Origin: Escherichia coli
GTDB lineage: Bacteria; Pseudomonadota; Gammaproteobacteria; Enterobacterales; Enterobacteriaceae
Assembly (NCBI RefSeq): GCF_003334815.1
Contig: NZ_QOWO01000015.1
Strand: one strand, 5' to 3'
DNA length: 64,000 bases
Shown here: positions 63,430 through 64,000 of the stretch, in pieces
How positions within the stretch are numbered: the stretch's first letter is position 1
How the letters are laid out: the number at the start of each line of letters is the position of its first letter
Notes under the pieces: generated by a model
Told to the model about the DNA's origin: nothing
The model's database searches: none
The model's input: the letters and a program-made list of their open reading frames with translations, nothing else
Made by a program: the position numbers and the translations under genes

Positions 63430-64000
63430 CTTAGATGTCCGGTATTAAGTAAGTTGCACACACAATAATTTCGTCTTCAATTAAGATCTGCTTAACTAAA
63501 GAACGCTCGCTATTATTCAGATAATTCAAAATGAGCGTGGCTGTGATGATAGGAATTATGTTTTTTACGTGAATGAGAATAATCTTAAATGAGGAATAAC
63601 TCATTGATTGACAATATTTTTATTCAAGAAGTGTCATTGACTGTTAACGCAATGTTGTAAAGGTAAGATAATCTGATTTATCAATATTATTGTGTGATTT
63701 TTATGTGAGCAGAAGATATTCATCAGCAACGATTACATTAGTCATTTTATTTTGCCGACGGCCTCATTGTCGAAAGATAAGCGTACGACAGTATTATCAG
63801 AAAAGAGTGATTTTTTATCCAACTACACTTCAGCGCACTGCGCTGAGAGATCCCCTCATAATTTCCCCAAAGCGTAACCATGTGTGAATAAATTTTGAGC
63901 TAGTAGGGTTGCAGCCACGAGTAAGTCTTCCCTTGTTATTGTGTAGCCAGAATGCCGCAAAACTTCCATGCCTAAGCGAACTGTTGAGAGTACGTTTCGA

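Follow-up and report, generated by a model that had tools for sequence, protein, structure and literature searches.

In Escherichia coli, the genes ymgG and ymgD form the ymgGD operon, which the small RNAs OmrA and OmrB repress through its 110-nt leader, as described in a 2026 preprint with the reporter 'ymgG-110+90' (10.64898/2026.06.26.734639). The operon is strongly induced by envelope damage (PMC5105897). Two small genes of the same neighbourhood, ymgI and ymgJ, carry annotations in thousands of genomes, and each has a Pfam family of its own (PF28591 for YmgI and PF28592 for YmgJ). In a microarray study, a 16-fold change was recorded for 'ymgI' (PMC4888631), and a survey published in 2025 listed ymgI and ymgJ among the hypothetical genes to which no regulator or function could be assigned (PMC12356324).

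A further described system that bears on the present locus is the insertion sequence IS10-Right of transposon Tn10. The boundaries of Tn10 are outside ends, and IS10 makes a 9-bp target duplication, with NGCTNAGCN as its target consensus.

Here we set out to characterise the final ~570 bases of a 64,000-nt stretch of E. coli DNA, the whole of which is referred to as the window. A preliminary description of these bases, made from the sequence alone, had put forward two small open reading frames (ORFs) as candidates for unannotated genes. We consider it highly probable that these ORFs are chimeras created by an IS10 insertion in ymgJ, and that ymgI and ymgJ are themselves probable annotation artefacts lying over regulatory DNA. 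The final bases of the window would then represent a divergent control region between the ymgG-ymgD operon on the minus strand and a decayed autotransporter gene on the plus strand (of which the ycgI remnant is left in K-12), into which a solo IS10-Right would have inserted in the present strain.

Results and discussion

The end of the window had been described as AT-rich, and its GC content across 63430-64000 is indeed 36.4%, as compared with 49.2% for the whole window. A base-by-base comparison with strain MG1655 gave 100% identity over 63000-63842, the first mismatch being base 63843. Many other E. coli genomes were also 100% identical to 63000-63842, and every alignment ended at 63842. The features found on either side of this breakpoint are collected in Table 1.

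Table 1 Features in the terminal part of the window, with the evidence or composition on which each entry is based
Feature	Position	Strand	Basis or composition
ymgG, 114-aa glycine-zipper protein, TTG start	63085-63429	-	Annotation and ORF list
ymgGD mRNA 5'UTR, 110 nt	63430-63539	-	Preprint construct and primer mapping
ymgI, 57 aa, intact	63431-63604	-	WP_000122462.1
Sigma-70-like ymgGD promoter, predicted	63546-63573	-	TTCACG, 16-nt spacer, TATCAT
Plus-strand 65-aa ORF	63690-63887	+	5 upstream codons, ymgJ codons 1-46, 14 IS10 codons and stop
ymgJ codons 1-46, GTG start	63705-63842	+	MG1655 annotation WP_001325005.1
Minus-strand 44-aa ORF	63747-63881	-	ATG and 13 codons from IS10, then 31 codons antisense to ymgJ
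Putative 9-bp target of IS10, CGCACTGCG	63834-63842		Inferred from junction position
IS10-Right inside end (PGAP: ISVsa5, IS4 family)	63843-64000		Exact identity to ISVsa5 copies
IS10 transposase gene 3' end, last 47 codons and stop	63856-64000	-	Reads toward ymgI and ymgG

Several further features were observed in neighbouring parts of the window. A frameshifted K-12-type autotransporter pseudogene, ycgH, occupies 61500-62689 (+) and ends at 62689. On the minus strand, 3' of ymgD, a strong terminator-like hairpin of 9 bp with 7 G-C pairs, followed by a T-run, is located at 62709-62733. The window is also colinear with genomes in which icd is directly followed by iraM (~52018-52121), so the e14 prophage, which is located at icd in MG1655, is absent from the present strain.

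The 158 bases beyond the breakpoint were found to be 100% identical to ISVsa5 copies, with 1017 genomes having a copy at a coverage of at least 80%. The inside-end terminal repeat of IS10, CTGAGAGATCCCCTCATAATTTCC, was matched exactly at 63843-63866, where 0 matches would be expected by chance, and a Dam site (GATC) is present within the IS10 terminal sequence at 63849-63852. In the Tn10 of strain W5-6, the same IS10 end, beginning CTGAGAGATCCCC, adjoins tet(B), tetC and a tetD-like gene and so faces the interior of the transposon; the end found in the window is therefore the inside end of IS10-Right. The minus strand codes for the 47 C-terminal residues of the transposase (...HGYALGKL and stop, ending at 63856), which matched the ISVsa5 transposase of the reference locus L002 without a difference, a comparison that covers the last 47 codons, with the catalytic part of the gene lying beyond base 64000. 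The IS10 origin of these 158 bases had been overlooked in the preliminary description.

No second IS10 end and no outside end was found within the 64-kb window, the end at 63843 being the sole one. Since this inside end abuts the chromosome, while a whole Tn10 ends in outside ends, the arrangement implies a solo IS10 and not a complete Tn10. The insertion is seen from one side, its other end and the target duplication being located beyond the window. The predicted target, CGCACTGCG, fits the GC..GC positions of the IS10 consensus and agrees with it at 4 of the 6 specified positions. We predict that CGCACTGCG should recur as a direct repeat past the other end of the element. A solo IS10 of ~1.33 kb would run ~1.17 kb past base 64000 to an outside end (...AAAATCATTAGGGGATTCATCAG), after which the duplicated CGCACTGCG and then the remainder of ymgJ, TGTAAAAAATGCCTCTTTC (TGTAAAAAATGCC), would be expected.

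The junction between 63842 and 63843 was absent from all 5426 complete E. coli genomes. Shared with no other complete genome, and with one IS10 end visible in a window that stops inside the element, it could in principle have arisen during assembly or cloning, for example from a contig mis-joined at a repeat. We consider such an origin very improbable: the break coincides exactly with the first position of the IS10 terminal repeat, as expected of true transposition, the 9 bp that precede the element fit the target consensus to the extent given above, and the locus tolerates insertions in other strains. Independent elements were found in or next to ymgJ: ATCC 8739-type strains carry an IS1 and GCA_027275455.1 an IS21-type element. 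The IS10 insertion described here is comparable to these.

Both of the ORFs proposed in the preliminary description are present at the positions listed in Table 1 and translate as had been reported. Their designation as unannotated could not be upheld, as the plus-strand ORF is the annotated ymgJ frame and the minus-strand ORF exists solely through the start codon and the 13 codons that IS10 supplies. The small ymg genes of K-12 which the description mentioned in this neighbourhood, without matching them to either ORF, are ymgI and ymgJ, both annotated in MG1655. More specifically, the plus-strand ORF begins at a TTG five codons ahead of the ymgJ start, is identical to YmgJ through residue 46 (...PTTLQRTA) and then runs into IS10 up to its stop. 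In the uninterrupted K-12 counterpart of the minus-strand ORF, two stops precede the frame, which then reads NDDIPHKKEAFFTRSALKC... with no ATG. The homologous frame had no ATG start in the intact K-12 allele and in six other alleles, and it was broken in alleles L007, L008 and L010. Because IS10 provides the C-terminus of the plus-strand ORF and the start of the minus-strand ORF, both are products of the insertion, the first being a truncated known gene and the second a junction chimera.

The remaining properties of the two ORFs were examined in the same manner. A hydrophobic segment had been noted in the minus-strand ORF; such a segment can be recognised, although it is weak, its best 19-residue Kyte-Doolittle mean of 0.77 being well below the value expected for a membrane helix. 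The statement that neither ORF has a convincing ribosome-binding site was borne out, with no Shine-Dalgarno-like motif at either start; none was found within 25 nt upstream of any of the four ORF starts considered in this work. ORF lengths were assessed with 2000 first-order Markov simulations of 571 bp. The number of simulated ORFs of at least 44 aa averaged 1.37 (sd 1.08), three or more were obtained in 13.8% of runs (p ~0.14), and the longest simulated ORF reached at least 65 aa in 26% of runs. Three ORFs of 44 aa or longer are within what chance alone would give for this AT-rich stretch. NCBIfam contained no family for YmgI, YmgJ, either proposed ORF or the 39-aa ORF described below. A Pfam-A profile search returned no match for the three ORFs of the window, YmgI included, but the library copy evidently predates PF28591 and PF28592, so that this search was uninformative.

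That one or both ORFs should be new, unannotated small-protein genes of this locus is, in our opinion, so improbable that it can hardly be entertained. The ORFs do exist, and promoter-like hexamers are located nearby on both strands. However, both ORFs straddle the junction between chromosome and IS10, and as this junction occurs in none of the 5426 genomes, the chimeric ORFs cannot be conserved genes. The plus-strand ORF belongs to a gene that is already annotated, and the minus-strand ORF is left without an ATG when IS10 is absent, its frame being disrupted in other alleles. The features generally expected of small-protein genes were also missing, as neither a Shine-Dalgarno sequence nor an NCBIfam or Pfam-A family match was found and the lengths are in the chance range. 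Neither reading frame proved to be conserved in related genomes, an outcome which the preliminary description had itself named as one that would count against its candidates.

We then considered the annotated gene that IS10 interrupts. In MG1655, ymgJ maps to 63705-63890 (+) and codes for 61 aa from a GTG start; the copy in the window is a truncated allele, whose homology to K-12 YmgJ covers residues 1-46 and not the full length. Essentially all named matches among the YmgJ homologues were from E. coli, with one from an unclassified Enterobacteriaceae bacterium. Several database variants of YmgJ (P0010, P0014, P0018 and P0021) have unrelated N-termini that derive from other insertions. One of these, P0010, which is 100% identical over 75% of YmgJ, was considered as a candidate for the same IS10-truncated product and rejected, since it is an IS21-type N-terminal replacement from another strain. 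The IS21-type element of GCA_027275455.1 replaces the N-terminus of YmgJ, whereas IS10 in the present strain replaces the C-terminus. The AT-rich spacer containing ymgJ appears to tolerate, or to attract, insertions.

Comparison with relatives showed that the ymgJ frame (PF28592) is not maintained. It was frameshifted in two of six divergent E. coli alleles (L007 and L008), which are annotated as pseudogenes, the strains in which ymgJ is annotated as 'frameshifted' being E22 and Ecol_732. The 17 variable sites are distributed 3/6/8 over codon positions 1/2/3, with no clear excess at the third position. The ymgJ region is part of a ~350-bp segment that recurs, at 89% identity, immediately ahead of the autotransporter gene ypjA, and in this second copy (L010) the ymgJ frame has a stop at codon 12 as well as a frameshift. 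Conservation of the ymgJ part is poor in E. albertii, where GTA replaces the GTG start, stops and indels occur and no ORF is left. In E. ruysiae the whole ymgJ segment is absent. An intact autotransporter gene of the ypjA/EhaD or AIDA type follows the ymgJ segment in strain 1190 and in E. albertii. We infer that ymgJ is an ORF situated fortuitously in the leader or promoter region of an autotransporter gene which has decayed in K-12, and that its annotation is probably an artefact over this leader region.

Two additional observations were made on the distribution of these segments. For 276 records of O157-type genomes, the ymgI-ymgJ region found no closer counterpart than the copy ahead of ypjA, at ~89% identity, which suggests that O157-type lineages are without an orthologous ymgI-ymgJ spacer. 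The ~140 nt immediately preceding the start codons of ycgI/ypjA-type autotransporter genes were found to be nearly invariant across E. coli, E. albertii (L012) and the copy upstream of ypjA. This segment corresponds to ~2375-2500 of the K-12 locus L001 and, in the present strain, is located beyond IS10 and outside the window. A 39-aa 'hypothetical protein' is annotated within it; the ATG of this protein is replaced by ATA in some alleles, and PGAP sometimes names it as an 'ATPase' fragment. The segment may be a conserved leader element. An Rfam search at a permissive threshold gave no match in window positions 62600-64000 or in the intact K-12 region.

A third ORF in the terminal stretch, which the preliminary description had overlooked, is the one to which MG1655 ymgI maps (Table 1). 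Homologues of YmgI carry PF28591 in precomputed annotation, and in each of the seven E. coli alleles compared the frame was open over 57 codons and free of indels. Five of its seven intraspecific variable sites fall at codon position 2. Comparison with E. albertii and E. ruysiae gave pN/pS values of 0.82 and 2.03, respectively, that is to say close to 1 or higher, as opposed to 0.04-0.10 for the neighbouring genes ymgG and ymgD, and ymgG is under strong purifying selection. E. albertii has ATC in place of the ymgI ATG, and E. ruysiae has TAA as the third codon. YmgI showed neither purifying selection nor a start codon conserved outside E. coli. Both ymgJ and ymgI evolve without amino-acid constraint.

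The part of 'ymgI' that is conserved coincides with elements described for ymgGD. The gene-specific part of forward primer AK491 maps to window positions 63539 to 63518, and the ymgGD start at 63539 (-110) was taken from the construct design in the same preprint (10.64898/2026.06.26.734639). According to that design, the ymgGD transcript would start inside 'ymgI', 65 nt downstream of the ymgI ATG. A consensus scan independently found TTCACG and TATCAT, separated by 16 nt, at 63573 to 63546. The last base of the -10 hexamer is 7 nt ahead of 63539; E. albertii retains the hexamer as TATCAT, and E. ruysiae has TATTAT. We propose that this site is the ymgGD promoter. The 110-nt leader is identical to that of E. 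albertii at 103 of 110 positions and to that of E. ruysiae at 104 of 110 (94-95%), the third codon positions of ymgG being less conserved than the leader (79% and 69% identical, respectively), and the DNA further upstream, beyond the leader, is visibly much less conserved. This pattern suggests that the conserved part of 'ymgI' is the promoter and 5'UTR of ymgGD and not a protein, and that ymgI is probably an annotation artefact lying over these elements.

Positions -19 to -12 of the leader (63448-63441) carry the motif UUAAUACC, whose complement, GGUAUUGA, corresponds to nt 7-14 of the presumed OmrA/OmrB sequences. An RNA duplex prediction between the presumed 5' ends of OmrA/OmrB and the leader returned loose, unspecific duplexes with large interior loops and was not relied on.

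An alternative to annotation artefacts is that ymgI and/or ymgJ encode genuine translated small proteins restricted to this lineage, ymgJ having been inactivated by IS10 and ymgI being intact and maybe coupled to ymgG. We consider this unlikely, while recognising that a number of observations fit it. The annotation in thousands of genomes and the two dedicated Pfam families have been mentioned, as has the frame of ymgI, open in every E. coli allele examined. YmgI further contains a 19-residue stretch that is strongly hydrophobic, with a Kyte-Doolittle mean of 2.09. The ymgI stop is separated by one base from the ymgG TTG (TAA-G-TTG, 63427-63433, minus strand), a spacing kept in E. albertii and E. 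ruysiae, and the annotated TTG start of ymgG (GTG in E. albertii) is not preceded by a Shine-Dalgarno sequence, so that the arrangement resembles translational coupling. Coupling of ymgI to ymgG was therefore considered, but the gap between stop and start can be conserved because the UTR itself is conserved; this explains the spacing equally well, and coupling need not be invoked. Similarly, the ymgGD leader can account for the 16-fold array signal assigned to 'ymgI', because the start site used for ymgGD is located inside ymgI. Against genuine proteins stand the pN/pS values of ymgI, the poor conservation of its ATG region outside E. coli, the position of this ATG upstream of the literature start site for ymgGD, the frameshifts of ymgJ in natural lineages together with its absence from E. 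albertii and E. ruysiae, the lack of a Shine-Dalgarno sequence before either gene, and the outcome of the 2025 survey (PMC12356324). It should be kept in mind that missing amino-acid constraint does not prove missing translation, as young orphan proteins can evolve neutrally.

The leader was also inspected for structure. A 12-bp hairpin, UCUUUAGUUAAG-CAGAU-CUUAAUUGAAGA, is predicted at 63502-63474 (-). None of the 13 interspecies substitutions in the leader falls within the 24 stem bases of this hairpin and four fall within its 5-nt loop, a distribution that offers no covariation to test and in which the three loop changes of E. ruysiae could represent one event. The folding energy of the leader is ordinary (z = -0.57) and gives no thermodynamic support for a structure. 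We put forward only tentatively, and regard as rather unlikely, the proposal that the nearly invariant 110-nt leader is a structured cis-regulatory RNA and so more than an 8-10 nt sRNA pairing site, with the hairpin as one candidate feature. In such a case, ymgI and ymgJ would be artefacts to retire, and the structured leader might control the expression of ymgGD during envelope stress.

With regard to its consequences, the insertion would remove the last 15 codons of ymgJ, a non-essential ORF, and would come between the ycgI pseudogene remnant and the upstream portion of the autotransporter's leader. At a distance of 304 bp upstream of the start site of ymgGD, IS10 leaves the promoter and leader of this operon intact. 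The insertion is most likely phenotypically neutral, because ymgI and ymgJ are probable annotation artefacts. As the IS10 transposase gene is aimed at ymgI and ymgG, weak read-through into the ymgGD operon is conceivable.

Conclusions

The biological importance of these findings is small. The only new item is the IS10 insertion site itself, which provides a strain marker unseen in 5426 complete E. coli genomes. The missing coding constraint in the long-standing K-12 annotations ymgI and ymgJ is of minor, curatorial interest, and array or RNA-seq signals that have been credited to ymgI are probably read-outs of the ymgGD leader. The two proposed ORFs also serve as a caution: ORFs that cross the junction of a mobile element are insertion artefacts, and the ends of a sequence call for a search for IS termini before any small gene is put forward.

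All four components of the locus, that is IS10-Right, ymgJ, ymgI and the ymgGD leader, are already known, and the present copies can be compared with each of them directly. YmgI is identical to K-12 YmgI (WP_000122462.1, 57 aa, PF28591) at 57 of 57 residues, with no sequence difference. The 110 nt at 63539-63430 are identical to the published ymgG-110+90 leader, with IS10 standing upstream at the distance given above. The ymgJ copy has the same locus, strand and frame as that of K-12 (WP_001325005.1, 61 aa, PF28592) and identical codons 1-46, but its 15 C-terminal residues (CKKCLFLMRDIIISS) have been exchanged for 14 IS10-encoded residues. Lastly, the insertion sequence shares with the IS10-Right of Tn10 the inside-end repeat, the GATC site and the transposase tail, at 100% identity over 158 bp, and differs from it in being inserted in ymgJ and joined to the chromosome at its inside end.
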